A stretch of DNA of 64,000 nucleotides from Bacteroidia bacterium (GTDB lineage: Bacteria; Bacteroidota; Bacteroidia; SpSt-205), in the NCBI GenBank assembly GCA_025057135.1, contig JANWXY010000067.1:12867-76866 (forward strand). The letters are read 5' to 3'. This document shows positions 20,315-60,056 of this stretch, piece by piece. Below the pieces are notes generated by a model. It worked only from the letters and a program-made list of their open reading frames with translations. It ran no database searches and was not told where the DNA came from. How positions within the stretch are numbered: the stretch's first letter is position 1; each line of letters opens with the position of its first letter. The translations under genes and the position numbers were made by a program.

Positions 20315-20451
20315 AGAAGTGCAGGATACCGCGCTATCCCGACACATTACCTCTAATAAAGCTATACCCCCCTCTACCTGCGCTGAAAGCGGCTTCCGCC
20401 TTTTTCCCTGGCCGGCGACTTTACCTCGTTATTCAAACTACCTTTGCAAAT

Positions 20452-21888
20452 ATGCGGAAGGTTCTACCGCTCGTAGCGATAGGAATAATCTCGGGAATAG
20501 TAGCCGCTTCGGTAACAGTTGCCTTTTTTTACTCAAAGCGCTCTACCTCTTCAGATTCTCTCATGACAGCTCCCACTGTTATTGTTCCCATTCGGCCGCT
20601 CCGAATGGAAAGTGGCCCAGGAGACGCCAGCTTTGTACAAGCCGCTCAGAGAGCCACGCCTTCTGTGGTATTCATTCGAGCCTACGGGGAAAGGACTGCG
20701 GGAGATGATTTTTGGAGCTACTGGGGACTTTGGATGCCTCGCACCCACCAAGTCTATAGCGCGGGCTCAGGCGTCGTTTGGAGTGCAGATGGGTATATCG
20801 TAACCAATTACCACGTCGTAAGAGATGCCAATCGTATTCTCGTAACCTTTTCAGACAAACGCACACTGGAAGCCCAACTGGTCGGTGCAGATGCAGGCGT
20901 AGATATTGCTGTACTGAAAGTCAAAGCCTCTGCCCTCACCCCTCTACCATTAGCGAACTCCGACTCAATCCAAATAGGCGAATGGGTACTCGCCATAGGT
21001 AATCCCTACAATCTTACTTACACGGTCACAGCAGGGATCATCAGCGCACGCGGACGCAATCTCAATCTCCTGCAGGGGCCTTTACCCTTAGAGTCCTTTT
21101 TACAGACCGATGCAGCTATCAATCCAGGTAATAGTGGCGGCGCCTTAGTCAATCTCCGCGGTGAACTCGTAGGAATCAATACAGCCATCGCTTCTCGTAC
21201 AGGCTCATATGTAGGTTATGGCTTTGCAATCCCTATCAATATCGTTCGTAAGGCTGTTGAAGACCTAAAAGGACATGGCATCGTACAACGAGCTTTTCTG
21301 GATGCAGAGATAGTAGATTTAGCAGAGGACCGCATTGGTGATATTTCCCCAGAAGCTTTACAGGGGTTGTATATCGGACGAGTATATCCGGGCGGTGCAG
21401 CAGAGAAAGCTGGCTTGCGTTCAGGGGATATACTGATTGCCATAGATGGGGTAAATGTTCATACCCAAGCCGAATTCTTAGAGCGTCTCGCTCAGAAACG
21501 CCCCGGAGACAGAGTCAAAATCTTCTATCGCCGCAATGGCAAGCAGTACGAAACCACGGCCATTCTGACAAACGAAGACGGAGAGCCTACCCTTCTAAAG
21601 CGAGAAATATATCGGTCTGAAGCTCTGGGAGCGGACATTTCCCCTTTGAGCACAAGGGAATCACAACGCCTCGGTATCAGTCAGGGCTATCGCATTCAAA
21701 ACTTACGCAGTGGAATTTTCAGCCAAATGGGACTACCAGAAGGTTTTATTTTACTGAAAATCAACGGCTACACTCCCCAGTCGCCCAGAGAAGTAGAGGA
21801 GATACTTCAAAAAATACGCGGACGACTGACCATAGAAGGCATAGATGCGCAGGGGCGTCGGTTATATCTGAATTTTAGCATGCGGTGA
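20452..21888 (+). CDS. HtrA/DegP-family periplasmic serine protease with two PDZ domains
   Basis: It has a trypsin-like catalytic triad (His in TNYHVV, Asp in DIAVLK, Ser in GNSGGALVN), an N-terminal TM anchor (VLPLVAIGIISGIVAASVTVAFF) and two PDZ-like regions. The track ORF starts at 20287 inside the CHAT gene. The ATG at 20452 (MRKVLPL...) is more plausible. Confidence 0.85.
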   Translation: MRKVLPLVAIGIISGIVAASVTVAFFYSKRSTSSDSLMTAPTVIVPIRPLRMESGPGDASFVQAAQRATPSVVFIRAYGERTAGDDFWSYWGLWMPRTHQVYSAGSGVVWSADGYIVTNYHVVRDANRILVTFSDKRTLEAQLVGADAGVDIAVLKVKASALTPLPLANSDSIQIGEWVLAIGNPYNLTYTVTAGIISARGRNLNLLQGPLPLESFLQTDAAINPGNSGGALVNLRGELVGINTAIASRTGSYVGYGFAIPINIVRKAVEDLKGHGIVQRAFLDAEIVDLAEDRIGDISPEALQGLYIGRVYPGGAAEKAGLRSGDILIAIDGVNVHTQAEFLERLAQKRPGDRVKIFYRRNGKQYETTAILTNEDGEPTLLKREIYRSEALGADISPLSTRESQRLGISQGYRIQNLRSGIFSQMGLPEGFILLKINGYTPQSPREVEEILQKIRGRLTIEGIDAQGRRLYLNFSMR

Positions 21889-24997: not shown

Positions 24998-25416
24998 AGA
25001 AACTAAGTATCCGCCCTCTACATGGTCAGGAACTTGCGCTATTATCCCAAGTAGAGCTGGGGGACTCTCAGCGAAACTTTTTACCCAGTTACCTCTCAGA
25101 CATGCCGACTTCGCAGATTTGGGGGTTGTGGTCAGGCGAAACTCTGGTAGGTTTCTTAGAGGTAGTAGGTCAGCCCCCCTTACTGTGGATAGCTCGCATT
25201 GGTATAGATCAACGCTATCAGAGCTTAGGGTATGGGGGTTATCTTCTGTCCGAGGTAATAGATAGATTGCGCCGACGCGCCCGTATTCGGGAGCTGCGAG
25301 CCGCCGTACATGTTCAAAATCTCCCTGCTCAGCATCTCTTCGCCAAAGCAGGATTCATGCAGCTTCCCTTCATTGAAGGGGAAGAGGAGCTGGTATTCGC
25401 ACTTTCACTCAGATGA
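24994..25416 (+). CDS. GNAT-family N-acetyltransferase (RimI-like)
   Basis: 140 aa with the GNAT acetyl-CoA binding region (RIGIDQRYQSLGYGGYLLSEVIDRLRRRA). It follows tsaB with an ATGA overlap. A tsaB-rimI arrangement is common. Confidence 0.7.
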   Translation: MKKLSIRPLHGQELALLSQVELGDSQRNFLPSYLSDMPTSQIWGLWSGETLVGFLEVVGQPPLLWIARIGIDQRYQSLGYGGYLLSEVIDRLRRRARIRELRAAVHVQNLPAQHLFAKAGFMQLPFIEGEEELVFALSLR

Positions 25417-26272
25417 GCTTATAGTTACGAAACTCCCCTGGTCGCCAGCCAGTTTTATCTTCTATCCACTGTAAAAGCTGCTCACGTGGAGTTAGGCGAG
25501 CATTTTCCGGGGCATAAGAAAAATCCCATGCCAAGGGCGTATGTATTCTACTCATCATGACTTGGGGATGGGTGCCTTCATACCGCCGCAAACGATCAGA
25601 AGTAGAATAGACAAACCGCTCAGGCTTGTGCCGTTGTATCCACTCGTCATTGTGCCAGAATCTATTCATCTCTACAAACTTGATGAGCTGAGCTTCGGGA
25701 GGACGAACCCACCCATAATGAAATACTCGCCCACCGCTATACTTCACTCTAAGCTTGCGTCCGCTACGACGAAAGCCTTGGGCATCCTTGTAGGCACGAA
25801 TATCAGGGTAGGGTCTGATTATTCGGACTTCTCGTCTGTACCACCGCCTAGAAGCCCCGACCCATTCATAACTCCCATAGAAATGTAGATAATCAAAAAG
25901 TAGGCCCTCTACTCGCTCATCATCTTTCCATTGCAACATAGCCTCTCGGATACTTGAATAGTCCTCTTCATGAAGCACTTCATCCGCCTGCAAGATAAGC
26001 ACCCAGTCGGCTTTGGGCAGCATATCTAAGAGTTTGTTTGTCTCTTGAGCTAAAACCGCCCCGCCTTGACGGAGATTGAGGTCCCAAACCGACTCTATGG
26101 GAAGTATTCTGGGGTCTCCTATGGCTGCCACCGCTTCCCGAGTACCATCATCGCTTTGACCGACACTTACATAAAAAACCTCACATAACGGGAGCGCTGA
26201 AAGAATGGCCTCACGAAAAGGATAGTCCATCTTGACTCCATTACGAAGGATCATTCCACCCACCACGCGCAT
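25409..26272 (-). CDS. Putative GT-A-fold glycosyltransferase (family-2-like)
   Basis: 287 aa. The N-terminal YVSVGQSDDGTREA and an acidic ILQADEVL (DxD-like) are consistent with a GT2-like nucleotide-sugar transferase. No signal peptide. Assignment rests on weak motif similarity only. Confidence 0.45.
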   Translation of the reverse strand: MRVVGGMILRNGVKMDYPFREAILSALPLCEVFYVSVGQSDDGTREAVAAIGDPRILPIESVWDLNLRQGGAVLAQETNKLLDMLPKADWVLILQADEVLHEEDYSSIREAMLQWKDDERVEGLLFDYLHFYGSYEWVGASRRWYRREVRIIRPYPDIRAYKDAQGFRRSGRKLRVKYSGGRVFHYGWVRPPEAQLIKFVEMNRFWHNDEWIQRHKPERFVYSTSDRLRRYEGTHPQVMMSRIHTPLAWDFSYAPENARLTPREQLLQWIEDKTGWRPGEFRNYKLI

Positions 26273-30142: not shown

Positions 30143-31259
30143 CCGCTTTCTACTGCCGCATTTAGAAGGCTTTGGACGCTTCACTCGCGAAATAGCCTCT
30201 CGGCTCATCCAGCAGTACCCCGAGGTCTCTTGGGAGCTTCTTTTTGATAGGCCCCCCCTGCCTAAATATACTTTTGGACCTACACAGCGAAACGTAGTCA
30301 TTCCTCCACAAACACGACACTGGACTTTATACGAAATATGGTGGCACCTTTCGGTACCTTTTTTCTATCTGAGGAAAGGCGCGCCTTCTGCGCTCTTCGC
30401 TACATACGGCATAGTCTCCAAAAAAGTCGCAGAGAAGGTCCCGACCGTTGCCTTCATACATGATGTGGCTTTTGCGCGCCATCCAGAGTTTCTCCCGAGA
30501 GATTGGCAGGCATACTATATGAGAGCCACTCGGCTATCGACTCGCTTTGCTCAACGCCTCATCACTAATAGCCTCTCTGTACAGCACGATTTGGTAGAAC
30601 TTTTTGGTGTCAACCCCGAAAAAATTCAGGTAAGCTACAGCGGATGTGATACAGAGTTCTTTCACCCCATGCCCAACCTGGATAGGGAAGCTATTCGCCG
30701 CGCTCATGCTCAGGGCTATCCCTATATTCTATATGTCGGAAGCATACACCCTCGTAAGAATCCCGAAAGGCTATTGCTGGCATACGACAAACTGCGAGAA
30801 AAGTACGATGCCCCCCTCCGTCTCCTGATGGTGGGGCGATTTATGTTCAAAGAGCGGACGGCGCTTAGCTCCCTTGCCAGGATGAGACATCGTGAGGAGG
30901 TTATTTTTCATCCACCTGTTTCAGATGAAGTTCTTCTACGGATGTACAACGCTGCTGAAGCTGTCGTGTATCCCTCGCTATATGAAGGATTCGGTTCGCC
31001 AGTAGCAGAAGGGCTGGCTTGCGGCGTTCCCGTGGTGACCAGTAGGGTGAGTTCTCTGCCTGAGACTGGCGGAGAGGCGGCATTTTATGCTGATCCTTAT
31101 GACCCTGTGTCTATTGCAGAAGCGATTTATCAGGCTCTCACTCAATCAGCTGACGAAAGGCGCCGCCGTGCCCTCCTTGGACTTGAACATGTGAAGCGCT
31201 TCTCCTGGAACGCCACAGTCCAGACCATATGGGAAAATCTCAAAGCCATTGCTGTCTAA
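30123..31259 (+). CDS. Glycosyltransferase family 1 (GT4-type retaining glycosyltransferase)
   Basis: The C-terminal EX7E motif region is YPSLYEGFGSPVAEGLACGVPVVTS. Confidence 0.8.
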   Translation: MRVAIDSRFLLPHLEGFGRFTREIASRLIQQYPEVSWELLFDRPPLPKYTFGPTQRNVVIPPQTRHWTLYEIWWHLSVPFFYLRKGAPSALFATYGIVSKKVAEKVPTVAFIHDVAFARHPEFLPRDWQAYYMRATRLSTRFAQRLITNSLSVQHDLVELFGVNPEKIQVSYSGCDTEFFHPMPNLDREAIRRAHAQGYPYILYVGSIHPRKNPERLLLAYDKLREKYDAPLRLLMVGRFMFKERTALSSLARMRHREEVIFHPPVSDEVLLRMYNAAEAVVYPSLYEGFGSPVAEGLACGVPVVTSRVSSLPETGGEAAFYADPYDPVSIAEAIYQALTQSADERRRRALLGLEHVKRFSWNATVQTIWENLKAIAV

Positions 31260-32463
31260 CTTTGAAGTAGTGAACTGGCAGGAGACATATGAACGCTATA
31301 CGGCGGCTTTACGTGCAGTGCCCCGCCCTTTAGCGCTGGTAGATGAAGAAGCCCTATACGAAAACGCTCAACGCGTTCTTGCTTATGCTGGGAAGCTACC
31401 AGTTCGTATAGCTACAAAATCTATCCGATGCGGCTCTATTCTTCGGCGGCTTTTTTCGTACAGTGAGCGCTTTCAAGGCATGCTCTGCATGAGCGCTCGG
31501 GAGGGCTTGTACTTAGCCCGAGAAGGGTTTGATGACCTATTGATTGGCTACCCTTTCTATCAGCAAGCGGAGTTGAGCGCTTTTCGTTCTTTGTTGGAGG
31601 CAGGGAAAAAAGCCATAGCCATCGTGGACAGTCCAGCTCATGTAGAAGCCTTACAGAAAGCTCTGGAGGGCACGCCCATACGCGCCCAAGTGTGTTTAGA
31701 TGTGGATGTTTCATCGGATTGGAAAGTTCTGTACTTCGGCGTGAGACGCTCTCCTATCAACACTCCCGAGAAAGCCCTGGAGTTGGCTCGGTTTATTCAG
31801 AAGCAGTCTCATTTAGAACTGGTAGGGCTCATGGCTTATGAGGCACAGATTGCGGGCGTCGGCGAACATAAAATGGGCTGGAAAGGACCGATTCTGCGGT
31901 TCTTGAAAGCCCAGTCCTGGAAAGAGGTACAGCGTCGGCGACAGGAGACGATAGAAGCTCTGAAAGCAGCGAACTTTTCTCTCCGCTTAGTAAATGGAGG
32001 GGGCACAGGTAGCCTTAGGGAGACGAGCACGGACCCCTCCGTAACAGAAGTAACGGCAGGTTCGGCTTTTTTTGCGCCAGCTCTATTTGATCATTATGAA
32101 AAAGTTCAGTTTGCTGCGGCGGCAGGCTTCAGTCTGGAGATTGTACGACAGCCTGCAAGAGACATATTCACCTGCCACGGAGGCGGATATATCGCTTCAG
32201 GAGCGGTGGGCTTAGAAAAGCTGCCCCGCCCTTGGCTCCCCCCGTCGGCGCAGTTTCTCCCACACGAAGGCGCAGGGGAAATACAGACCCCCGTACATAT
32301 TCCAGACCCTCCCCCTTTTCTGCGCATAGGAGCGCCATTGTATTTTCGCCACGCCAAAGCTGGGGAGCTGACCCAGAGATTTCCTCAACTTCACATCATC
32401 CGAGGCGAAAAACTCGTGGAACAAGCTTCTACCTACGCCAGCCTTCCCGAGGTCTGGGTATGA
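31249..32463 (+). CDS. Alanine-racemase-fold PLP enzyme (DSD1 / D-serine dehydratase-like / D-threonine-aldolase-like family)
   Basis: The N-terminal TIM-barrel shows a PLP-lysine-like motif (VRIATKSIRCGSILRRL) resembling the Ala racemase N-domain of DSD1-family proteins. 404 aa. It is translationally coupled between GT1 and the LptF/G-like gene. Confidence 0.55.
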   Translation: MLSNFEVVNWQETYERYTAALRAVPRPLALVDEEALYENAQRVLAYAGKLPVRIATKSIRCGSILRRLFSYSERFQGMLCMSAREGLYLAREGFDDLLIGYPFYQQAELSAFRSLLEAGKKAIAIVDSPAHVEALQKALEGTPIRAQVCLDVDVSSDWKVLYFGVRRSPINTPEKALELARFIQKQSHLELVGLMAYEAQIAGVGEHKMGWKGPILRFLKAQSWKEVQRRRQETIEALKAANFSLRLVNGGGTGSLRETSTDPSVTEVTAGSAFFAPALFDHYEKVQFAAAAGFSLEIVRQPARDIFTCHGGGYIASGAVGLEKLPRPWLPPSAQFLPHEGAGEIQTPVHIPDPPPFLRIGAPLYFRHAKAGELTQRFPQLHIIRGEKLVEQASTYASLPEVWV

Positions 32464-36433: not shown

Positions 36434-36504
36434 TGCCCGGTCGTCTAACGGTAGGACAGCAGATTTTGGGTCTGCGTGTGGGGGTTCGAATCCTCCCCGG
36501 GCAA
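36434..36504 (+). tRNA. tRNA-Gln (anticodon TTG)
   Basis: The acceptor stem tgcccgg/ccgggca pairs. The anticodon stem gcaga/tctgc encloses the loop ttTTGgg. The T-arm is ggggTTCGAATCctcc. Length 71 nt, no encoded CCA. Confidence 0.8.
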
Positions 36505-36508
36505 CAGC

Positions 36509-37486: not shown

Positions 37487-38386
37487 ATGATAACTCTGTT
37501 CGCTTGTCCCAAACCATTTACCGAACCTCGTATAGCCGAAGTTCAAAGAAAAGCCATCCAGAGTTGGCTTCTTCTGAAAAAAGTATCGGAAATAATCCTT
37601 ATCGGGGACGATGAGTTAGTCGCAGAGGTCGCAGCGGAATATAATCTCAAACATATACCGTATTTAGAAAAAACTGCACACGGAAGCCCCATGGTTAGTG
37701 ATCTATTTTACAAAGCGAAAAATGCCGCAATAAGCGACATTCTAATGTATGTCAACTCAGACATACTCCTCACGAATAAGGTTATTGATGCAGTAGATAT
37801 AGTCAAGCAAGCCTTCAACAAATACCTCATTATTATATCTCCTTACCTGACTGATATAAATGGTCTGACCATTCAAGAGGGATATGAAAACAGAGCTTTT
37901 GAGCACATCGTCAATCAACCTATACCGACAGGCGCAGATGTATTTATTTTTCCCAAGACCATTTACGATGAAATTCCTCCTTTCGGCTTAGGAAGGTGTT
38001 TCTGGGATTTTTGGCTCATTTCAGACCCTCTTCTGAAAGGAATACCGGTCATAGATGCCACTGACTTCGCACCCACCTTCCATCCTGTGGATGAAAGTAG
38101 TACCCACTATGTAGAATACACTCAAAGAGAGGCCCCAGTACTTGCCGAAAAGTCTATCTCCGCACGATCTCAGGCATTTAATATGCAAATGAATATAAAC
38201 TTTACACTGACAGACTCCGCGCACCTCCTTCGTCGGCACGATGTCCCCTACAAGCTCTCATCAGAAGGACAAATCATACAACAAAAATCCATGTGGCGTA
38301 TACGGATGAAACAAAAGATAGGGCTTTGGATGGATAAAACCGCCCCTATACGCAGAAGAATCGGATTATATCGCTGGTGGAAATGA
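37487..38386 (+). CDS. Uncharacterised protein, paralog A of a tandem pair (possible GT-A-like transferase)
   Basis: 299 aa with no TM or signal peptide. About 40% of positions are identical to the downstream ORF. Shared motifs are FTEPR[IF]A[ED][VI]Q.KAI[QK]SW, YVN[SA]DI, GAD[VI]F, WD.W and KGIP.IDAT[DE][FY]A.T[FL]HP[VI]DE[ST]STH. GC is about 40-45%. Confidence 0.6.
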   Translation: MITLFACPKPFTEPRIAEVQRKAIQSWLLLKKVSEIILIGDDELVAEVAAEYNLKHIPYLEKTAHGSPMVSDLFYKAKNAAISDILMYVNSDILLTNKVIDAVDIVKQAFNKYLIIISPYLTDINGLTIQEGYENRAFEHIVNQPIPTGADVFIFPKTIYDEIPPFGLGRCFWDFWLISDPLLKGIPVIDATDFAPTFHPVDESSTHYVEYTQREAPVLAEKSISARSQAFNMQMNINFTLTDSAHLLRRHDVPYKLSSEGQIIQQKSMWRIRMKQKIGLWMDKTAPIRRRIGLYRWWK

Positions 38387-38387
38387 T

Positions 38388-39329
38388 ATGATAACGATAG
38401 CCTCTTGGCCGAAGAGATTCACGGAGCCCCGCTTTGCGGACATCCAAACTAAAGCCATCAAGAGCTGGCAAATGCTTTCGCCTGATGTAGAAATCATTTT
38501 AGTGGGTAAAGATGAAGGTGTCGCCGAAGTCTGCGCTCAAATGGGGCTGAAGCACCTACCAAACGTAAGAGCAAATGAAAGAGGAACGATATATCTGGAC
38601 GATCTCCTCTATCAAATTTCACTGCATGCAAGGCATAACATCGTGGCGTATGTAAATGCGGATATTATTGTATTGCCAGCCCTTGCTCGTGCTGTATCGG
38701 AGGTTTCCAAAAAGTGGAAGCGTTTCCTCCTCGTTTCAGCCCCTCATATAGCAGATTTTACTGCTATTCAGGTAGAGCCTGGCTTTGAGAAAAATGCCCT
38801 CAAACATATTGTCCAACAGCCGACCCCATACGGAGCTGATATTTTTGTCCATACAAAAGGATTGTATAAAAAGGTAAAGCCTTTTCTGGTTGGTCGACAG
38901 ATATGGGACTCATGGATGATGGCTTACCCTGCGGGAAAGGGGATACCCTGTATAGATGCCACAGAATATGCCATAACCCTTCATCCAATAGATGAAACCA
39001 GTACCCATGCATATGTACATTTACAAGAGGGAAAGAAACGGGAAGAAAGCTGGCGCAAGGCTAATGATCCTCTCAAGGTTCAAGAATATGAATACAATGA
39101 GAGCATGGTAACCTCATGGTGGTTCATGCACCTACATAGAACGAAGTTACCTTATGAGATTAAGCCTGATGGAAATATCTCAGAAAGAAACTTATCTGAC
39201 AAAGACATTGATATTATAAGAAAGATAAGGTCAGAAGATAGGAAATCATTTATAAAAAGCCTGCTAAAACGAGTCGGATTATACAATAAAGTGTACGATC
39301 TATACAGAATTATCAAACGGAACTACTGA
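38388..39329 (+). CDS. Uncharacterised protein, paralog B of a tandem pair (possible GT-A-like transferase)
   Basis: 313 aa. It starts 2 nt after the paralog A stop. It shares the same conserved motifs as paralog A. The C-terminal tail is Lys/Arg-rich. GC is low. Confidence 0.6.
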   Translation: MITIASWPKRFTEPRFADIQTKAIKSWQMLSPDVEIILVGKDEGVAEVCAQMGLKHLPNVRANERGTIYLDDLLYQISLHARHNIVAYVNADIIVLPALARAVSEVSKKWKRFLLVSAPHIADFTAIQVEPGFEKNALKHIVQQPTPYGADIFVHTKGLYKKVKPFLVGRQIWDSWMMAYPAGKGIPCIDATEYAITLHPIDETSTHAYVHLQEGKKREESWRKANDPLKVQEYEYNESMVTSWWFMHLHRTKLPYEIKPDGNISERNLSDKDIDIIRKIRSEDRKSFIKSLLKRVGLYNKVYDLYRIIKRNY

Positions 39330-39410: not shown

Positions 39411-40775
39411 ATGGAGAAACTGAGTCGGGTGTCCATAGTTGGACTTGGCAAGTTAGGGGCTCCTATGGCAGCAGCCATCGCATCCAAAGGAATACAGGTG
39501 ATTGGAGTGGATTTGGACGATAATAAGGTCGCTGCTATCAATCGTCTTGCTGCTCCTGTGTATGAGCCTGGGCTATCAGAGCTACTACAAAAAAGCGCTG
39601 GTTACGTATCTGCTACGACGGATCTATATCAAGCCGTACTTGACTCTCAGGCAACTTTTATCGTTGTAGCTACACCGAGTCAGCCCGATGGACACTTCTC
39701 CTTAGAATACGTCCTAAAGGCGTGTCAAGTAATCGGTGAGGCTCTCAAGAAAAAAGATGCATGGCACACCGTCGTTGTAACAAGCACGGTATCGCCTTTA
39801 TCTATGGATAGACATATACGCCCTACACTGGAAAGCATTAGCGGCAAAACGGCTGGAAAAGATTTTGGCTTAGCTTACAATCCAGAGTTTATAGCTTTGG
39901 GTACTGTAATCCGGGATTTCCTAAACCCTGACCTTATACTCATTGGAGAGTCCGACAAGACAACGGGCGACCTGCTGCAGGACCTCTATGAGAGAGTTTT
40001 AGATAAGAAGCCGTATTATGCTCGAATGAACTTCGTCAATGCGGAGCTGACAAAGCTTGCCATCAATACATTTGTCACTACAAAAATCAGCTTCGCTAAT
40101 ATGATAGCTCGCATCTGTGAGCGGCTGCCAGAAGCCGACGCAGATACAGTCACAACTGCTTTAGGGATGGACTCACGAATAGGTTCCAAGTACCTTCGTG
40201 GAGCGATAAGCTATGGCGGGCCTTGCTTTCCCCGAGATAATCTTGCGCTGATAGCTCTCGCTCGTCAAGTGGGCATCACGGCAGACATCGCAGAAACGAC
40301 TGATAGCTTCAACCGCTGGCAAAATCAGTGGCTGGCAGAGTTTATTTACCAACATCTCACCCTTGGTCAAAAAGTCGGCATACTCGGTATAGCCTATAAG
40401 ACAGGGTCAGATGTCATCACAGAGTCGCCAGCTATATACGTGATGGAGCACCTTCTCCAAAAAGGTATCTCCATAATAGCTTATGATCCTGCTGCCCATA
40501 CAAATGCTAGAAGCATTTTTGGGGAAAATATCATATGGGCAGACTCCGCAGCTGAATGCATCGCTCAAGCAGAGGTAATAGTTATTCTAACGACTTGGCC
40601 AGAATTTAAAAATCTCCCATCTAACGCCTGGAGCCCCGATGGTGTAATACGAAAAGTAATAGACTGCTGGCGATTCTTACCTGAAATAGCTGACCATCCT
40701 AAGGTGGATTATATCCCTCTCGGCAAATCCGTTCAAGCCCCTGTAACGCAAACTTCCGTAGAAACTTCGGCATAA
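39411..40775 (+). CDS. Nucleotide-sugar 6-dehydrogenase (UDP-glucose/GDP-mannose dehydrogenase family)
   Basis: The N-terminal Rossmann motif is VSIVGLGKLGAPMAAAIASKG. The catalytic Cys context is YGGPCFPRD (compare GGSCFxKD). 454 aa. Confidence 0.85.
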   Translation: MEKLSRVSIVGLGKLGAPMAAAIASKGIQVIGVDLDDNKVAAINRLAAPVYEPGLSELLQKSAGYVSATTDLYQAVLDSQATFIVVATPSQPDGHFSLEYVLKACQVIGEALKKKDAWHTVVVTSTVSPLSMDRHIRPTLESISGKTAGKDFGLAYNPEFIALGTVIRDFLNPDLILIGESDKTTGDLLQDLYERVLDKKPYYARMNFVNAELTKLAINTFVTTKISFANMIARICERLPEADADTVTTALGMDSRIGSKYLRGAISYGGPCFPRDNLALIALARQVGITADIAETTDSFNRWQNQWLAEFIYQHLTLGQKVGILGIAYKTGSDVITESPAIYVMEHLLQKGISIIAYDPAAHTNARSIFGENIIWADSAAECIAQAEVIVILTTWPEFKNLPSNAWSPDGVIRKVIDCWRFLPEIADHPKVDYIPLGKSVQAPVTQTSVETSA

Positions 40776-41803: not shown

Positions 41804-42792
41804 CCGAAAAGCGTCGGAGGGCCACCTTTTATTGCACGCCCGAAGTGTTCATAAGCGCGCTCCAATGCTCGGCGCCCCCGCAAGGTTCGCTCCATGAACC
41901 CCTCCATAATGAGATAAGGCTCATACACCTCCTCTATGGTCTCAGCTTCTTCTCCAATAGCCACAGCAAGCGTCTGTATGCCCGTAGGACCGCCACCGAA
42001 GCGATCTATGAGCGCAAGCAGAAGCTTCTTATCTATCTCTTCTAACCCCGCAGGGTCTATGCGAAGGGCAGTAAGAGCTTCCTCGGCAAAAGTCCCATCT
42101 ATTTTATCTACCCTGCTCACCTGGGCAAAGTCACGTAACCGACGCAATAAACGATTAGCCGTACGAGGCGTCCCACGGCTACGACGAGCTATCAGTTCAG
42201 CCGCTACCTCTGCGATAGATATGCCTAGCAGTTGTGCTGAACGCAGTACAATCTGGGTAAGTTCAGCTTTGGTGTAATACTCTACATGAATGGTGATTCC
42301 AAATCTTGCCACAAGGGGGGCTGTAAGCAGCCCAAGTCGGGTAGTAGCCCCTACGAGGGTGAAAGGTTTGAGGCGCAGCTGCAGAGTTCGGGCATGAGGC
42401 CCGCTATCTATGACTATGTCCAGCCGATAATCCTCCATAGCACTGTACAAATACTCCTCTATGGAGGGATGCAGCCGATGAATCTCATCTATAAAAAGAA
42501 CATCCCCGGCCTCCAACTGCGTGAGCAATCCAGCTAAATCAGCCGGCCTTTGAAGCGCAGGACCACTGGTAGTAAAGAGACGAGTACCCATCTCATGAGC
42601 TATGATATGGGCCAAAGTAGTCTTACCTAGTCCTGGCGGACCGTAAAATAACGTGTGATCCAGAGGCTCTCCGCGTTCTCGAGCTGCGGCGATGAAGATA
42701 TGCAGATTCCGAATAAAGGGCCGCTCGCCGATAAATTCGGACAAGCTTTTAGGTCGTAGAGCCCGCTCTTCGGAGTCAAGAACCGCCTTCAT
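41800..42792 (-). CDS. ruvB: Holliday junction branch migration ATPase RuvB
   Basis: Walker A is FYGPPGLGKTTLAHIIAHEMG. Walker B is VLFIDEIHRL. There is a C-terminal winged helix. 330 aa. Confidence 0.9.
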   Translation of the reverse strand: MKAVLDSEERALRPKSLSEFIGERPFIRNLHIFIAAARERGEPLDHTLFYGPPGLGKTTLAHIIAHEMGTRLFTTSGPALQRPADLAGLLTQLEAGDVLFIDEIHRLHPSIEEYLYSAMEDYRLDIVIDSGPHARTLQLRLKPFTLVGATTRLGLLTAPLVARFGITIHVEYYTKAELTQIVLRSAQLLGISIAEVAAELIARRSRGTPRTANRLLRRLRDFAQVSRVDKIDGTFAEEALTALRIDPAGLEEIDKKLLLALIDRFGGGPTGIQTLAVAIGEEAETIEEVYEPYLIMEGFMERTLRGRRALERAYEHFGRAIKGGPPTLFG

Positions 42793-43207
42793 GCGGAAGC
42801 TGCTTCACCATGTGATAAACAGAGCTGCCGCCTTTGCACTTTCGGACATCTATCCTGTCTATAAGCCGACGAATGAGATATATCCCGAAGCCCCCGGGTC
42901 TATTTGTTCCGGCTCGGAGTAGAGTCGGCTCTGAAGGATACGCATGTAAGTCATATGGTGGCGCAGGGTCATACAGATAGATGTGGAGAGTATGCTTCTG
43001 CACATGCAGTTCTAATCGGAGCTCTTTCTGAGGATTTTCGGCATTTCCGTGGAGAATAGAGTTTGCGCAGAGCTCCTCCACAGCGACAGTGATCTGATTA
43101 AGCAACACCGAAGAGGGCACTTTCGCGCGCAGATGCGTCTGTACGAAATGGCGAATTATGGGTAGATTCTCGGTAGAAGCCCCAAAGGACAAACTCGCCT
43201 TAGACAT
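42776..43207 (-). CDS. Anti-sigma regulatory factor-type serine kinase (RsbW/SpoIIAB-like GHKL ATPase)
   Basis: 143 aa with an HATPase_c fold. It carries the N-box EELCANSILHG and the G-box GGFGIYLIRRLIDRIDV. It overlaps the ruvB start by 17 nt. Confidence 0.75.
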   Translation of the reverse strand: MSKASLSFGASTENLPIIRHFVQTHLRAKVPSSVLLNQITVAVEELCANSILHGNAENPQKELRLELHVQKHTLHIYLYDPAPPYDLHAYPSEPTLLRAGTNRPGGFGIYLIRRLIDRIDVRKCKGGSSVYHMVKQLPHEGGS

Positions 43208-43537
43208 GATTAACAGGCATGAGCTTCGTCAGCCCTAAAAGATCCAGGATGTTGTATACCTCAGGGGTTACATCTTTTAGCTCCAGAGAAATGCCTTTCG
43301 GAGCGAGATTATCAATAGACATGAGCAGGATGCCAGCGCCAGCACTTGAAAGGTAAGTTAGACCGCGGCAGTTTAGGATGATTTTACGGGTATTAGGATG
43401 TTCCTGAAGTAGGCGATTTAGATTTTCGTAAAGCTTAGGAGCAGTGAGAGCATCTAACTCGCCCGTGAGAGCTACTTGAAGGTTAGTATCCGTAGTACCC
43501 GAAAGGACTTCTACCTGCATGTAGCAAAGATACGAGC

Positions 43538-43541
<4 letters not shown>
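43200..43541 (-). CDS. STAS-domain anti-sigma-factor antagonist (RsbV/SpoIIAA-like)
   Basis: 113 aa. The phosphorylatable-serine context is LNCRGLTYLSSAGAGILL. It is translationally coupled to both neighbours. Confidence 0.8.
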
Positions 43542-47496
<3,955 letters not shown>

Positions 47497-56269: not shown

Positions 56270-58912
56270 ATGCAGAAAGAAACCTTTACTAAAACCCTCC
56301 TCCCAATAGCGATTATCGCTCTGTTCAGCGTCCTCTACTTTTTACCCCTGTATCAGGGATACCGATTCAGAGCCTCTGATCAGACCCAGCTGGAGTACAT
56401 GAACTACCCGCTCACCAAACTATATCAGGAAACAGGGAAACTTGCTTTTTGGGCTCCACACCTTTTCGGGGGAATGCCCGCTTATCTTATATACCATGTG
56501 CCAGAGGGTATATATTTTCTCGCTCCGATGAATATCGCTGGACAGCTCTTTCGTGAATACGGACCTTCTGCATTCTTTGTGGGAGGCTTGGGGTTTTTCA
56601 TCCTTCTACGGCTCATAGGCATACGGTGGGCTTGGGCTTTGGGGGGAGCACTTGGGTTTATCCTCACGAGCTATTATTCCAATATGATCATTGCCACCCA
56701 TTGGGGTAAAAGCAATGTGATCTTTTCAGTACCATATGTCTTATCGGGCATGATGCTCCTACGGCGCAATTCGTGGGCCTGGGGCATACTCTTGTCTCTT
56801 TTGGGTTGGGCGGGGATGGCTGGTGGAAATCATCCTCAAATGATGTATTATGCACTCAGCGTTATTGGGGGGGTGGGGGTTTTATGGTTGTGGGAAACAT
56901 GGCAGACGCGCAGCTGGTGGGCTTTCGGAAAAGGGGTCGCCATCTTCGCTTTATGTGCTGGCATAGGCGCGGCATCTCAGATTAGTTCCTTGCTCCCGTT
57001 TTATGAATACGGGCGCTACTCCATCCGAGGAGGTAGTGAGTTAGAACGGGACACAGAAAAAGACCCCTCTCTTCGCTCAGGCTTAGATAAAGAGTATGCT
57101 CAAAATTATTCCGCAAGCCGAGCGGAGATATGGACGATGATCATTCCTGATTTTGTAGGGGGCACATCCCAGGAGGACCTTTGGGGACGCTTGGGACGCA
57201 GCTCTGCCCTGGCAGAAGCTCTTCAATCTCATGGCATAGGTGATATAAATATTCTCCGCTCCGCACCGACGTATTGGGGGGGCTCTCCTTTTTCGGCGGG
57301 TTCATTTTACATCAGTGCCATTGCTCTCTTCTTGATGATCTTAGGATGGACCTACGGCATGCAGCCGATAGACTGGATACTTGCTTATGTAGGATGGATA
57401 GTTATACAGCTCTCGCTGGGTTTGTACGGCTATGCACTGTGGGCTACAGCGGTATTATTACTTCTGCCGGTGGCGGCTCATTATGCAGCCCGCTTTCCCA
57501 AAAAGCTCTGGATGAAGGCTTCTGCTGCTACCATGACCTTTCTAATAGGTTGGGGGCTGATTAGCCTCATAGATGATAGCCCTGAGACTACCTATAAGCT
57601 GACCGACTGGGCATTAGACTACCTACCCTTATACAATAAATTCCGAGCGCCCTCCACATGGCTGGTGATTATGGGTATTTTACTACCATGGCTCGGCATG
57701 CGTGGTATCCAGCGCTTTTTAGAAGCGCCTCAGCGAGAAAACCTTTTCTCCGCTCTGAGTGTGAGCGTAGGGATTTTGCTTCTCATAGGCATCGGCGGAG
57801 CTTTGGGCTTTAGCTTTGAAGGAGCATATGACGCTTCGCTAAAAACCCAGGCCCAACTGCCTGACTGGTTTATGGAGGCTTTACGAGAAGACCGTATCTC
57901 TCTGGCGCAACGCTCCGCCATGCGCAGCATCCTCTGGGTAATGCTGGCTGGGGGCGTTTTACTTTTACTTTCCCTACGGCAAATATCTGAAAGCTTAGCA
58001 GGTGGGATAGTTGCCGCACTCATTGCTTTAGATGGGTGGCTTCTGAACAGTTCCTACTTTCCCAAGCGAGAAACCTATGTAGAGTCTCGTAAAATACAGA
58101 TTCCGCCTCCACTGGCCCCTCATGAGACTATCCTTCGGGCGGATACGAGTGCCTATCGCATCCTCCCGCTTCATACCAACCCTTTTACAGATGCTCGTCC
58201 CGGCGTCTATTTTGAGAATGCAGGTGGCTACCATCCCGCTAAACTCAAGAGGTATCAGCAGTTTATAGAAGCTCACTTAAGCCGATTAGAACCCGAAGCG
58301 CTCAAAATGATGAGCGTCAAATACATCACCGCCCGCCCTGGAACTCCCGTCCCGCCCACTTACGATAGTCTGACTAAAGCCTCCGACGATGTGGTCATTT
58401 TTAGAGCCAAAGATACCTTACCTATGGCATGGCTGGTAGAAACTGTGAGAGTTTTCCCACGGGTGGATCAAACCTTAGACAGTATCGGTAAATACCCCGT
58501 CCATCAAGTCGCCATAGTTGCCGAGAAAGACTGGCAGCGTATCACTCCCCAGCCTTCCTCTAACCGCTTGGATAGCGCTGAAACTGTCGTTTGCGTAAAA
58601 CGAAACGCCTATGAGCTAGAGTACAAGGTTCGCACCCGTCAGCCTCGCCTTTTAGTCATGAGCGAAGTGTACTATCCGAAAGACTGGAGCGCAGCAGTGA
58701 ATAGTCAGACCGTCCCCATCATACCTGTGAATTTCATCCTCAGAGGAGTAGTAGTGCCTGCTGGAGAAAGCACCGTGCGACTGACTTGTGAAAGTGCTAT
58801 TCACAATCAAGGACGACGGATTTCCCTTATTGGGTCTGTGTTAGCCTGGGGAATGATTGCTGTAAGTATGGGGTGGATGGTGGTGAAGCGGCGAAAAGTA
58901 ATCCCCACATAA
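56270..58912 (+). CDS. YfhO-like large polytopic membrane protein (putative glycosyl/lipid transferase)
   Basis: About 880 aa. The N-terminal roughly 560 aa has more than 12 TM helices. There is a large C-terminal extracytoplasmic domain and a final TM helix. This is the YfhO family architecture. The ATG at 56270 (MQKETFTKTLLPIAIIALF...) is preferred over the track start at 56186, which overlaps the divergent DUF58 gene. Confidence 0.55.
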   Translation: MQKETFTKTLLPIAIIALFSVLYFLPLYQGYRFRASDQTQLEYMNYPLTKLYQETGKLAFWAPHLFGGMPAYLIYHVPEGIYFLAPMNIAGQLFREYGPSAFFVGGLGFFILLRLIGIRWAWALGGALGFILTSYYSNMIIATHWGKSNVIFSVPYVLSGMMLLRRNSWAWGILLSLLGWAGMAGGNHPQMMYYALSVIGGVGVLWLWETWQTRSWWAFGKGVAIFALCAGIGAASQISSLLPFYEYGRYSIRGGSELERDTEKDPSLRSGLDKEYAQNYSASRAEIWTMIIPDFVGGTSQEDLWGRLGRSSALAEALQSHGIGDINILRSAPTYWGGSPFSAGSFYISAIALFLMILGWTYGMQPIDWILAYVGWIVIQLSLGLYGYALWATAVLLLLPVAAHYAARFPKKLWMKASAATMTFLIGWGLISLIDDSPETTYKLTDWALDYLPLYNKFRAPSTWLVIMGILLPWLGMRGIQRFLEAPQRENLFSALSVSVGILLLIGIGGALGFSFEGAYDASLKTQAQLPDWFMEALREDRISLAQRSAMRSILWVMLAGGVLLLLSLRQISESLAGGIVAALIALDGWLLNSSYFPKRETYVESRKIQIPPPLAPHETILRADTSAYRILPLHTNPFTDARPGVYFENAGGYHPAKLKRYQQFIEAHLSRLEPEALKMMSVKYITARPGTPVPPTYDSLTKASDDVVIFRAKDTLPMAWLVETVRVFPRVDQTLDSIGKYPVHQVAIVAEKDWQRITPQPSSNRLDSAETVVCVKRNAYELEYKVRTRQPRLLVMSEVYYPKDWSAAVNSQTVPIIPVNFILRGVVVPAGESTVRLTCESAIHNQGRRISLIGSVLAWGMIAVSMGWMVVKRRKVIPT

Positions 58913-58970: not shown

Positions 58971-60056
58971 TTACTGATTATGCACTGTGCCTGAGCGGGC
59001 GATGAGCGCAAAATCCGCCAGCACTATGGCTGTCATGGCTTCTACCACAGGTACAGCCCTGGGAATGGCGCTGGGGTCATGCCGCCCCTTAGCCGTAAAG
59101 GTAACCTCCTCGCCAGTCCGAGTAACCGTGCGCTGAGGACGCCTGAGAGTAGCTATGGGTTTGAATGCCACTCGGAAGTATAGAGGCTCACCTGTAGATA
59201 TTCCACCCAAAACCCCTCCGGCATAATTTGTTAGCGGACGCACCTCGCCTGAGCTTCCGATGGTGAAGGCATCATTGTGTTCGGACCCGCGCATAAAGGC
59301 ACTGGTGAAGCCCATGCCTATCTCAAATCCCTTGGCGGCGTTGATACTAAGCATGGCGTAAGCAAGCCGAGCGTGTAGCTTATCATAAATCGGTTCGCCC
59401 CATCCACCCGGCAGCCCTTCCACCTGCGTAGATATTATACCGCCGGCGGTATCCCCTTCTTCAATCAGCTGTGCTAAATAAGCCGTGATTTGGGCGCTGA
59501 CTTCTGCGTCTGGACACCGAATCGGAGACCCCTCTATTTCATCGGCAGTAGTCGGTATGTAATTAGTCTCAAAAGGGCCAATGCGAGAGGTCCATGAGAG
59601 GATTTTTATTGACGGATGCAGAAACCTAAGTAACTGCAGAGCGACAGCCCCTGCAGCCACCCGAGCTGCTGTTTCTCGGGCAGAGCTTCGTCCGCCCCCC
59701 CTGGGGTCTGTGTGTCTGTACTTAAGCGCATAAGTAAAGTCTGCATGAGATGGACGAAAAACCTGGGCTATTTCCGCATAATCTGTCGGGCGAGCATCCG
59801 TATTAGGTATCCAAAGGGTGAGAGGGGAGCCCAAGGTCCGCCCCTCGTATAATCCACTGAGGACTTGTACCGCATCCGGTTCATTTCTGGGAGAAGTATA
59901 AGCAGATTGACCAGGACGGCGGCGGCGCAGCGCAGATTGGATTTCCTCCACGCTTATTGGAACATCCCCGGGCATACCATCTATAACTACACCTATGCCT
60001 GCTCCATGAGACTCTCCAAAAGTCGTAATCCGAAATAGCCTACCGAATGTATTCAT
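58971..60056 (-). CDS. aroC: Chorismate synthase
   Basis: MNTFGRLFRITTFGESHGAGIGVVIDGMP is the canonical AroC N-terminus. The internal start at 60056 is preferred over the track start at 60083. Confidence 0.9.
   Translation of the reverse strand: MNTFGRLFRITTFGESHGAGIGVVIDGMPGDVPISVEEIQSALRRRRPGQSAYTSPRNEPDAVQVLSGLYEGRTLGSPLTLWIPNTDARPTDYAEIAQVFRPSHADFTYALKYRHTDPRGGGRSSARETAARVAAGAVALQLLRFLHPSIKILSWTSRIGPFETNYIPTTADEIEGSPIRCPDAEVSAQITAYLAQLIEEGDTAGGIISTQVEGLPGGWGEPIYDKLHARLAYAMLSINAAKGFEIGMGFTSAFMRGSEHNDAFTIGSSGEVRPLTNYAGGVLGGISTGEPLYFRVAFKPIATLRRPQRTVTRTGEEVTFTAKGRHDPSAIPRAVPVVEAMTAIVLADFALIARSGTVHNQ

Follow-up and report, generated by a model that had tools for sequence, protein, structure and literature searches.

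Inverting GT-A glycosyltransferases of the GT2 type (PF00535), exemplified by SpsA (1h7l), WrtF (9omh), AvpGT (9jma) and PcManGT (6yv7), carry a 'P(T/V)YN' motif in their N-terminal loop. Multidomain O-antigen and glycan synthases of the WbdA/WbdD/WbbB type belong to ABC-transporter-dependent pathways. Both the E. coli K4 chondroitin polymerase (K4CP; 2z86/2z87) and the Pasteurella heparosan synthase PmHS2 (8viw) combine a GlcA-transferring GT-A module, for which UDP-GlcA is the donor, with a second GT-A module. The common core of GT-A enzymes, for which K4CP is the prototype, comprises the DxD motif, the glycine of the G-loop, an acid at the start of alphaF and a C-terminal His (Taujale et al. 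2020, PMC7185993). The Asp of the xED motif at the alphaF start is the catalytic base of inverting GT-A enzymes, and in GT24 an Asp is reported to replace the C-terminal His (PMC7185993).

Here we analyse two adjacent genes, ORF-A and ORF-B, in a 64-kb stretch of DNA from a Bacteroidia bacterium MAG (hereafter the window), and compare their products with these systems. The evidence set out below indicates that both proteins are very probably GT-A glycosyltransferases and, with only slightly less confidence, that they act in surface-glycan synthesis.

Results

A tandem pair of paralogs outside the family libraries

A first-pass annotation of the window had reported two same-strand ORFs, and both are present with the lengths that it gave (Table 1), although the spacer between them is 1 nt (TGA-T-ATG) rather than 2 nt. 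The start codons of both are backed by the family N-terminal consensus M-I-T-L-F. The proteins are indeed paralogous, with 37% identity and 59% positives over 304 columns of a BLASTP alignment (E=1e-67) and about 43% identity in the catalytic core, and because this alignment is ungapped to about residue 215 they share residue numbering up to that point. ORF-A is made up of a catalytic core (residues ~1-205) and of C-terminal helices that end in a basic, aromatic tail.

Table 1. Positions in the window of the tandem genes, their conserved motifs and the adjoining dehydrogenase gene
Feature	Position	Strand	Description
ORF-A	37487..38386	+	299 aa; GenBank MCS6895796.1, 'hypothetical protein', Bacteroidia bacterium MAG
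ORF-A N90-S91-D92	37754..37762	+	NxD variant of GT-A DxD (predicted), right after strand beta4 (residues 85-89)
ORF-A G169-R170-C-F-W173-D174	37991..38008	+	G-loop glycine and acid at the alphaF N-terminus (helix 173-183)
ORF-A H199-P-V-D202	38081..38092	+	C-terminal His region, candidate metal ligand
ORF-B	38388..39329	+	313 aa; GenBank MCS6895797.1, 'hypothetical protein'; paralog of ORF-A
ORF-B N90-A91-D92	38655..38663	+	NxD motif; numbering from the BLASTP alignment and residue table
ORF-B G169-R170-Q-I-W173-D174	38892..38909	+	G-loop and candidate catalytic Asp
ORF-B H199-P-I-D202	38982..38993	+	C-terminal His region
NDP-sugar 6-dehydrogenase (Ugd-like)	39411..40775	+	454 aa; 81 nt downstream of ORF-B, same strand

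The earlier statement that the pair matches no nameable family holds, in that Pfam, NCBIfam, PHROGs and PADLOC name neither protein. Searches of Pfam and NCBIfam with hmmscan gave no match at E<=1 for ORF-A or ORF-B beyond a single line, to COOH-NH2_lig (E=0.16), that we regard as noise. PF00535 (Glycos_transf_2, for which membership requires a gathering score of 23.3 bits), PF13641 and PF10111 were without a match to either protein at E<=1 in Pfam, and neither Pfam nor NCBIfam returned a match to the NTP_transf models. At the level of family models, then, ORF-A and ORF-B appear from their sequences to be remote relatives of GT2 rather than members of PF00535. The PHROGs and PADLOC searches returned zero families at E<=0.01, and hence neither a phage nor an anti-phage defence match. 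Searches of PDB sequences with each protein and with a 25-sequence family profile found nothing credible (E>1 for the profile); a line to KdsC phosphatase for ORF-B (E=0.03) is attributed to chance, the fold being unrelated. All family members that we have seen, including those in RefSeq, are labelled 'hypothetical', and a literature search for a described family with these features yielded nothing specific.

An exhaustive profile search places 5,965 clusters at 50% identity in the family, and the 24 matches of a word-indexed search, which had made the family look rare, were an artefact of sensitivity. Carriers include at least 552 species of bacteria and archaea, among them Acidobacteriota, Chloroflexota, cyanobacteria, CPR bacteria and methanogenic archaea. 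The domain often forms part of multidomain proteins of 1000-2800 aa, in which its fusion partners are GT2, Glyco_trans_1_2 (GT1-like), FkbM/SAM methyltransferase and TPR domains. Weak Pfam matches to NTP_transf_3 in two fusions (P0026 and P0030) were set aside as a clue to chemistry, the matches lying outside the family domains. Natural self-fusions of two copies also exist, and of six such proteins that were checked, five keep the catalytic residues in both halves; in the sixth (P0032), the C-terminal copy is degenerate, having lost N90, D92, D151, G169 and D174. Moreover, tandem pairs recur independently, in the window and in three other loci (L089, L039 and L075).

Predicted fold and conserved residues

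The suggestion of a GT-A-like fold is upheld by structure prediction, both proteins giving confident AF2 models (pLDDT 89.9 for ORF-A and 90.3 for ORF-B, the latter with pTM 0.85) for which the best structural matches are nucleotide-sugar glycosyltransferases. The order of secondary-structure elements is the same in the two models, each of which is predicted to form a Rossmann-like alpha/beta/alpha sandwich with the GT-A strand order that can be superimposed on known GT-A enzymes. Foldseek searches of the PDB with ORF-B retrieve WrtF, K4CP, AvpGT and PcManGT at a probability of 1.00, the same set as is obtained for ORF-A; identity to the solved glycosyltransferases in these structural matches is just 9-15%. 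CHSY3-CHPF and EXT1-EXT2 are also among the structural neighbours, and GT-A glycosyltransferases are the sole matches in a viral structure library. In addition, comparison of the family profile with GT2 domains using HHalign gives a probability of 95.6% (E=1.3e-8), with the family segment 'EIILIG-DE' set on the 'EIIVVDDGS' strand of GT2.

All of the shared motifs quoted in the first-pass annotation occur in both ORF-A and ORF-B. Conservation was counted over 93 further family domains, which together with ORF-A and ORF-B make 95 sequences, and Q20, W27, N90, D92, I93, D151, G169, R170, D174, W176, D190 and H199 are invariant or nearly so across the family within these motifs. Both proteins retain every family-invariant residue, and the order of these residues matches that of the GT-A common core. 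The acidic 'xDI' motif that had been pointed out near position 90 proves to be well placed, N90 (92/93) and D92 (93/93) aligning in HHalign with the two Asp residues of the GT2 DxD; we predict that NxD is a variant of this metal- and diphosphate-binding motif. G169 (93/93), in the loop preceding helix 173-183, is followed by R170 (91/93), and D174 (92/93) is the second residue of the helix and the sole invariant acid at its N-terminus. D174 is put forward tentatively as the candidate catalytic base. In the HHalign register, the ED-Asp of GT2 lands on position 172, where family members never have an acid, and D174 lies two residues later, so that the catalytic base, and hence an inverting mechanism, can only be tentative.

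H199 is present in 93/93 domains, and position 202 is His in 92/93 (HQNH) but Asp in ORF-A and ORF-B; it is with position 202 that the conserved His of GT2 aligns in HHalign. The region sits at the place of the GT-A C-terminal metal-binding His and may, as had been suggested, supply the third metal ligand, the residue concerned (H199 or position 202) being ambiguous. The N-terminus of the family has a conserved F-x-x-P-K-P-F segment and is without a conserved glycine-rich loop.

Genomic context and the Ugd-like partner

As described in the first-pass annotation, the pair lies between prs (~36.5-37.4 kb) and a gene of the UDP-glucose/GDP-mannose dehydrogenase family. Its placement inside a glycan locus is roughly right, since an LPS/glycan cluster encoding GT9, GT2, Wzx-like, GT4, LptF/G and GT9 proteins is found at 26.4-34.75 kb, but this cluster is set apart from the pair by rmuC on the opposite strand, tRNA-Gln (36434-36505) and prs. 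The next genes past ugd are queG and ruvB on the opposite strand, and neither an SDR nor a GT2 gene adjoins ORF-A, ORF-B or ugd. Homologs of Wzm/Wzt were not detected anywhere in the 64-kb window, for which the tRNA-Gln is the sole Rfam match. Scans for sigma-70 promoters and intrinsic terminators gave counts equal to those in shuffled sequence and were uninformative, the sigma-70 consensus not being the Bacteroidota promoter type.

The dehydrogenase has the N-terminal, central and C-terminal UDPG_MGDP_dh domains of Pfam (E=4e-46, 9e-27 and 3e-21, respectively) and scores 359.7 bits against TIGR03026 in NCBIfam, where the best equivalog-type match, to AglM UDP-glucose 6-dehydrogenase, is below the cut-off. 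The closest PDB entries are a UDP-Glc dehydrogenase (3vtf, 1e-70) and a GDP-Man dehydrogenase (1mfz, 5e-68) with near-equal scores, and the substrate, uncertain on sequence grounds, may be UDP-Glc or GDP-Man. The enzyme is the probable source of a uronic-acid donor.

Co-occurrence with UDP-glucose dehydrogenase, which had been proposed as a check, is seen in several phyla. In 15/86 family loci the immediate neighbour is a Ugd-like gene; these 15, out of the 23 Ugd-like genes in the loci, abut the family gene on the same strand, with gaps ranging from a 34-nt overlap to 159 nt. The adjacency is found in Acidobacteriota, Chloroflexota, Fervidibacter, Thermodesulfobacteriota, Planctomycetota and this Bacteroidia MAG. 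Within 6 kb of the family gene in the 86 loci, the neighbours are GT2 (64), SDR epimerase/dehydratase (51), GT4 (39), ABC ATPase (32), ABC-2 permease (24) and Ugd-like (24), several clusters from the all-vs-all ORF clustering that were artefacts of antisense ORFs in high-GC genomes having been left out. At least one glycan-class neighbour is present in 45 of the 49 long loci. The homolog loci first examined were glycan or nonulosonic-acid clusters in four cases out of five, and a link to nonulosonic acids (NeuB/CMP-synthase), hinted at by two loci (L005 and L008), was discarded when such genes were found in just 1-3 of 80 further loci. The idea that prs is functionally linked to the pair was likewise rejected, since it is near the family gene in 0/80 loci.

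Discussion

The reading that we favour, and consider likely when taken as a whole, is that both genes encode active GT-A transferases that serve a surface glycan, and that uronic acid (GlcA) is probably the sugar transferred by one or both of them. Each protein would bind a nucleotide-sugar in its N-terminal Rossmann-like half, the NxD motif (N90 and D92) and the C-terminal His/Asp region (H199 and D202) holding the diphosphate and a divalent metal. The acceptor, a glycan or a lipid-linked molecule, would then receive the sugar, D174 at the alphaF start being the likely general base. Such a role for D174 would entail an inverting mechanism, as in GT2, a point on which we regard the balance as even. 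To judge from their spacing, ORF-A and ORF-B are probably co-transcribed in one operon with the downstream NDP-sugar 6-dehydrogenase, and at least one copy would transfer the hexuronic acid that this enzyme makes, most probably from UDP-GlcA and possibly from GDP-ManA. Taken by itself, the assignment of at least one copy as a uronic-acid transferase, which is based on the gene association with Ugd, falls somewhat short of an even call. The paralogs may catalyse consecutive steps in the assembly of a single surface glycan (LPS, O-chain or capsule-like). We infer the metal dependence, the uronic-acid donor and the acceptor, and peripheral membrane association may take place via the basic, aromatic C-terminal helices.

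It is also conceivable, if unlikely, that both proteins are GT-A transferases of which neither uses the product of the dehydrogenase, Ugd merely feeding the same pathway. Another transferase, such as a neighbouring GT2, might then add the uronic acid, an SDR might turn UDP-GlcA into UDP-Xyl or UDP-GalA, or ORF-A and ORF-B might use an acceptor that contains uronic acid. A GT2 gene lies on the far side of Ugd in at least four Ugd-adjacent loci (L016, L011, L040 and L049), and close to it in several others, and the uronic acid could therefore in fact be used by that GT2; SDR genes, frequent among the neighbours counted above, abut Ugd in three loci (L047, L017 and L018). Moreover, there is no adjacent Ugd in 83% of the family loci, which means that not all members can share one donor, and the donor specificity of GT-A enzymes is unreadable from homology (PMC7185993). 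In the window, however, SDR and GT2 genes do not adjoin the three-gene segment, and the constant neighbour of Ugd across architectures is the family gene, whereas the gene on its far side varies (GT2, SDR, Wzm and unknowns). A further alternative is that the pair forms an obligate heterodimer with a single catalytic paralog, its partner being a pseudo-glycosyltransferase with a structural or regulatory role, much like the eukaryotic CHSY/CHPF and EXT1/EXT2 polymerase complexes. Such a heterodimer would fit the independent recurrence of tandem pairs, the natural two-copy fusions, the degenerate copy in P0032 and the presence of those very complexes among the structural neighbours. Both ORF-A and ORF-B nevertheless have all of the invariant residues, as do both halves of 5/6 fusions, and we judge this arrangement very unlikely. 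The GxGxR glycine-rich loop is the usual signature of MobA/IspD/CofC-type nucleotidyltransferases, and the corresponding P-K-P-F loop of the family is without glycines. The N-terminal half of the GT-A fold also occurs in nucleotidyltransferases (MobA/CofC/IspD-like or sugar-1-phosphate nucleotidylyltransferases), and ORF-A and ORF-B might on that basis activate a sugar or acid; but the structural matches to such enzymes span ~150-170 residues, compared to 196-226 for glycosyltransferases, with lower scores, and the invariant NxD, G-loop, alphaF acid and C-terminal His fit the glycosyltransferase core, leaving this assignment barely credible.

As to the origin of the pair, the low GC content reported earlier is genuine, at 42.3% against a window mean of 50.0% (SD 2.0, equal-length windows), and no other such segment of the 64 kb is lower; the neighbouring genes are at 47-53% rather than the 50-60% claimed. 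Gene by gene, GC (z=-3.2) and GC3 (0.415, z=-2.2) put ORF-A and ORF-B at ranks 1 and 2, the lowest, of the 52 genes in the window. This composition is consistent with the horizontal acquisition that the first-pass annotation had proposed, and a cassette made up of the pair, with or without ugd, would account for several further features. The nearest homolog beyond this species is only ~40% identical, copy number varies among close relatives, a tRNA-Gln is located 1 kb upstream, and the context of the subclade differs by MAG, being prs and ugd here, AAA and Fe-S biosynthesis genes in L001, and holA and a TonB-dependent receptor in L089 and L090. On the other hand, an integrase or transposase gene is absent nearby, the flanking direct and inverted repeats are only short, imperfect two-copy matches at chance level, prs lies at normal GC between the tRNA and the pair, the adjacent ugd and queG also have low GC3 (0.43), and the pair is kept in three MAGs of this species. 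The same deficit, of 5-8 points, is seen in the family genes of three other Bacteroidia loci from sister MAGs, perhaps implying that low GC is a long-standing property of these genes that is typical of surface-glycan genes. A recently acquired cassette is therefore doubtful in our view, and the data point only weakly to recent horizontal transfer.

A broader interpretation, which we offer as distinctly improbable when all of its parts are taken jointly, is that the family represents unrecognised, cosmopolitan glycosyltransferases that were ancestrally dedicated to uronic-acid transfer as partners of a Ugd-type dehydrogenase in ABC-transporter-dependent glycan pathways. The tandem and self-fused forms would then make up a new line of alternating co-polymerases, analogous in bacteria and archaea to the glycosaminoglycan synthases, Asp would replace the usual second His for metal in the HPxDE subclade, and the family would merit its own CAZy/Pfam entry. 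About six thousand 50%-identity clusters are labelled 'hypothetical protein' even though they are situated within surface-polysaccharide gene clusters. Recognition of the GT-A domain, together with the candidate donor suggested by Ugd, would close this annotation gap for the reconstruction of O-antigen, capsule and S-layer glycan pathways, and CAZy/Pfam curators would gain a well-defined seed with invariant residues. Understanding of glycan synthesis would be unchanged, the fold, chemistry and genomic logic being conventional; it is an annotation gap that is at issue and not a new kind of biology.

Of the known systems, the GT2-type inverting GT-A enzymes resemble the family in their profile-profile homology (95.6%), their beta1-loop-alpha1 N-terminus, acidic end of beta2, motif at the DxD position after beta4 and, more tentatively, acid at the alphaF start and C-terminal His region, and in their habitat of polysaccharide gene clusters. 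Unlike GT2, the family has NxD rather than DxD, sequence identity of 9-15%, a conserved acid two residues downstream of the ED-Asp and 'PKPF' in the N-terminal loop. Its own signature is HQNHDY (HP[VI]DE in ORF-A and ORF-B), Q20 and W27 are invariant, and ~90 further residues extend the C-terminus as helices. Large proteins in which the family domain accompanies GT2, GT1-like, FkbM-SAM methyltransferase and TPR domains may be likened to the WbdA/WbdD/WbbB-type synthases, and the ABC ATPase (32/86) and ABC-2 permease (24/86) genes, often in the order Wzm-Wzt-GT2-Ugd-FAM-GT2, recall ABC-dependent pathways; the pair in the window, in contrast, is stand-alone, and the nearest glycan cluster there has a Wzx-like flippase. 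K4CP and PmHS2 are matched by the tandem genes and two-copy fusions with intact active sites, beside a Ugd-like gene. The modules in the window are, however, separate 300-aa paralogs, whereas the two K4CP domains are dissimilar, and the family has no sequence-level similarity to these polymerases (E>1 for the PDB profile search).

Paralogous genes adjoining a dehydrogenase gene

The two adjacent same-strand ORFs for which the first-pass annotation had claimed paralogy, ORF-A and ORF-B, are present at the lengths given there (299 and 313 residues) and contain every one of the motifs it quoted, although the spacer is 1 nt (TGA-T-ATG) rather than the 2 nt reported. BLASTP alignment of the two proteins gives 37% identity and 59% positives (E=1e-67), with ~43% identity in the catalytic core, and on the strength of these alignments we regard them as true paralogs. 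Their N-termini (MITLF and MITIA, respectively) agree with the consensus start of their homologs, hereafter the family, and both genes are kept in three MAGs of the source Bacteroidia species. The reported dip in GC content is also reproduced by a sliding-window calculation, in which the pair (42.3%, compared to a mean of 50.0% and SD of 2.0 for windows of equal length) is the minimum segment of the 64 kb. Among the 52 genes of the window, ORF-A and ORF-B rank lowest in both GC (z=-3.2) and GC3 (0.415; z=-2.2). Overall, the initial observation is confirmed.

The pair had been placed inside the glycan locus. It does lie near the main LPS/glycan cluster but outside it, because rmuC (on the opposite strand), tRNA-Gln and prs intervene. 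ORF-A, ORF-B and the gene for an NDP-sugar 6-dehydrogenase (ugd) form a compact same-strand unit, with prs 39 nt upstream, and ugd is followed by queG and ruvB on the opposite strand. In PDB comparisons the dehydrogenase matches UDP-glucose 6-dehydrogenase (3vtf, 1e-70) and, nearly equally, GDP-mannose 6-dehydrogenase (1mfz, 5e-68), while NCBIfam leans to UDP-glucose dehydrogenase types. Other features of the window are included in the table. The 286-aa ORF that borders the LPS cluster does not belong to the ORF-A/ORF-B family. Of the two SpoIIE phosphatases that lie apart from the partner-switching module, one is PAS-fused and the other TPR-fused. CHAT proteins are caspase-like proteases, frequently found in conflict or signalling systems.

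Features of the window, with positions in nt unless stated
Feature	Position	Strand	Remarks
SpoIIE phosphatase	6884-8626	+	
SpoIIE phosphatase	10255-12099	-	
TPR + CHAT-domain protein and protease	17522-21885	+	930-aa TPR + CHAT protein, then directly an HtrA-like Trypsin_2-PDZ protease
286-aa ORF	25409-26272	-	beside GT9; no Pfam match at E<=1e-5
LPS/glycan cluster	26.4-34.75 kb		upstream of the pair; GT9, GT2, Wzx-like Polysacc_synt, GT4, LptF/G, second GT9
ORF with weak Ala_racemase_N match	31249-32463	+	between GT4 and LptF/G genes; PLP-barrel, E=3e-8
tRNA-Gln	36434-36505		upstream of the pair
ORF-A	37487-38386	+	299 aa; GenBank MCS6895796.1, 'hypothetical protein'
ORF-B	38388-39329	+	313 aa; GenBank MCS6895797.1, 'hypothetical protein'
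NDP-sugar 6-dehydrogenase	39411-40775	+	UDPG_MGDP_dh family; begins 81 nt past the end of ORF-B
Partner-switching module	42776-45535	-	three parts, next rows
HATPase_c_2 kinase	42776-43207		anti-sigma type
Putative STAS-type anti-anti-sigma factor	43200-43541		assigned by inspection
SpoIIE/PP2C phosphatase	43538-45535		membrane protein
880-aa ORF	56270-58909	+	no Pfam match at E<=1e-5
472-aa ORF	60043-61458	-	no Pfam match at E<=1e-5

A remote relationship to GT2 glycosyltransferases

Neither protein has a match in Pfam or NCBIfam at E<=1, searches of PHROGs and PADLOC returned nothing, and PDB sequence searches with each protein and with a 25-sequence profile gave nothing credible, in agreement with the earlier statement that no family could be named. 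HHalign comparison of the family profile with a profile of the GT2 genes flanking family members, however, gives a probability of 95.6% (E=1.3e-8). This match, when set against the silence of Pfam, leads us to infer that the family is a remote GT2 relative missed by the Pfam GT2 models.

Taujale et al. 2020 (PMC7185993) describe the common core of GT-A enzymes in terms of a DxD motif, a glycine in the G-loop, the Asp of xED, which opens helix alphaF and serves inverting enzymes as catalytic base, and a C-terminal metal-binding His. In the family, Q20, W27, D92, D151, G169, and H199 are 100% invariant and conservation is 98% or higher at N90, R170, D174, and W176 (ORF-A/ORF-B numbering), and these residues run in the order expected for the GT-A core. 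N90-x-D92 directly follows strand 85-89 and aligns with the GT2 DxD, G169 is located in the loop preceding helix 173-183, whose second residue is D174, and H199 lies in a C-terminal loop. In the HHalign register, the canonical GT2 ED-Asp falls at position 172, where no family member has an acidic residue, and D174 is paired with the later Asp of the GT2 motif 'EDxDLW'. The conserved GT2 His falls at position 202, where 99% of the family carries His (HQNHDY) and ORF-A and ORF-B carry Asp (HP[VI]DE), a replacement of the C-terminal His with precedent in GT24 (PMC7185993). The residues assigned as catalytic base and third metal ligand are candidates only. Both paralogs are probably active because each keeps the full set of conserved residues. 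The HHalign match, the position of the NxD motif, and the order of the conserved residues support the first-pass interpretation of ORF-A and ORF-B as GT-A-fold glycosyltransferases, belonging to a widespread GT2-related family absent from Pfam, NCBIfam, PHROGs, and PADLOC.

Distribution and genomic context of the family

The family is large rather than rare. Just 24 relatives were returned by a word-indexed search; an exhaustive profile search finds 5,965 clusters (50% identity, E<=1e-3), including 2,403 at 1e-30, and two short peptide patterns alone match 552 species genomes. Hosts are found in the Acidobacteriota, Chloroflexota, Planctomycetota, Verrucomicrobiota, Thermodesulfobacteriota, cyanobacteria (including the cultured Leptothermofonsia sp. 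ETS-13), Patescibacteria, and methanogenic archaea. Every named member, including RefSeq WP_421658639.1, carries the label 'hypothetical protein'. Many members are domains within proteins of 500-2800 aa, fused to GT2, Glyco_trans_1_2, FkbM/SAM methyltransferase, or TPR modules. Self-fusions of two family copies also occur, and catalytic residues are kept in both halves of five of the six that were checked. In one two-copy fusion (P0032, 502 aa), the C-terminal copy (residues 257-473) lacks N90, D92, D151, G169, and D174, making it a candidate pseudo-glycosyltransferase domain.

Among the homolog loci, four of the five inspected first belong to glycan or nonulosonic-acid clusters. We clustered all ORFs within 6 kb of a family gene at 86 loci, with no preselection of classes. 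The GT2 (64 loci), GT4 (39), ABC-transporter ATPase (32), and ABC-2 permease (24) classes have Pfam-checked labels, the SDR epimerase/dehydratase class (51) was labelled via Pfam-labelled seed proteins, and the Ugd-like dehydrogenase cluster (24) contains the window's own Pfam-annotated enzyme. In a separate count, one or more neighbours of a glycan class occur at 45 of 49 long loci. Moreover, Ugd-like genes directly abut the family gene on the same strand in 15 of 23 cases (overlapping by up to 34 nt or separated by up to 159 nt), compared to ~10% expected for random placement in a 20-gene locus, although the loci are not phylogenetically independent. This adjacency is seen in differing architectures and in at least six phyla; the link to the dehydrogenase is specific, bearing out, for Ugd-like enzymes, the anticipated co-occurrence with UDP-glucose dehydrogenase. 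The gene order Wzm-Wzt-GT2-Ugd-family gene-GT2 recurs in Acidobacteriota, Fervidibacter, and Chloroflexota, and Ugd has a GT2 gene on its far side at four or more of the loci where it adjoins a family gene. There is no adjacent Ugd in 83% of family loci, and prs is near the family gene in none of 80 loci.

A polytopic membrane protein of ~500 aa with no Pfam match (L064 3649-5262 and homologs) is encoded at 15 of the 86 loci and may be an unannotated membrane component of the glycan pathway; in L016, L040, and L074, among others, its gene lies just ahead of Wzm/Wzt. In three metagenomic glycan clusters (L002, L005, and L008), the family gene has a B12-binding radical-SAM enzyme as its neighbour, but we rejected this link as a general pattern because it is seen in only 2 of 80 reference-genome loci.

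Origin of the pair

Low GC had been described as consistent with horizontal acquisition, which holds, and mobility of family genes would also fit their composition, patchy phylogeny, variable context, and variable copy number. Nevertheless, recent acquisition of this pair seems rather unlikely to us, given that the site has neither flanking repeats nor mobility genes, prs, between tRNA-Gln and the pair, has normal GC, and the neighbours ugd and queG are also low in GC3. In addition, the same GC deficit of 5-8 points recurs for family members at three further Bacteroidia loci. The low GC seems to be a lasting property of these glycan genes and does not prove that the pair arrived recently.

ORF-A and ORF-B form a separate subclade with three Bacteroidia-type proteins (P0002-P0004), marked by HPxDE and 'ISPY/SAPH' as opposed to HQNH and 'GxRWDLD' elsewhere in the family. 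The duplication is old because ORF-A and ORF-B are as distant from one another as from the other subclade members. An independent tandem pair is present in a different Bacteroidia MAG (L089), its upstream copy being nearest to P0003 and P0004, not to ORF-A/ORF-B; at this same position, a close relative (L090) carries only one copy. P0004 (224 aa; L089 5420-6300) looks frameshifted, with the remainder of the family's C-terminal region (…YWVEASKKILPYFMDSTGKIH…) in another frame just past the stop codon, which could reflect either an error in sequencing or the decay of one copy in a tandem pair. In the main clade, at least two copies occur within 10 kb in 10 of 89 sources (88 loci and the window), with directly adjacent pairs in L039 and L075. 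Repeated independent duplication, together with the natural self-fusions, suggests that two family modules often work together.

Functional implications

ORF-A, ORF-B, and the adjacent NDP-sugar 6-dehydrogenase may act jointly to attach a uronic acid and one further sugar to a surface glycan, the uronic acid most likely being beta-GlcA if the mechanism is inverting. Relative to the libraries searched (Pfam, NCBIfam, PHROGs, and PADLOC), the family is a newcomer within a thoroughly familiar class of enzymes. It offers no mechanistic surprise, and its value lies in annotation and in a testable donor hypothesis. Paired family modules could carry out two successive transfers or could constitute a two-site enzyme by analogy with E. 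coli K4 chondroitin polymerase (K4CP) and Pasteurella heparosan synthase (PmHS), each of which has two GT-A domains.
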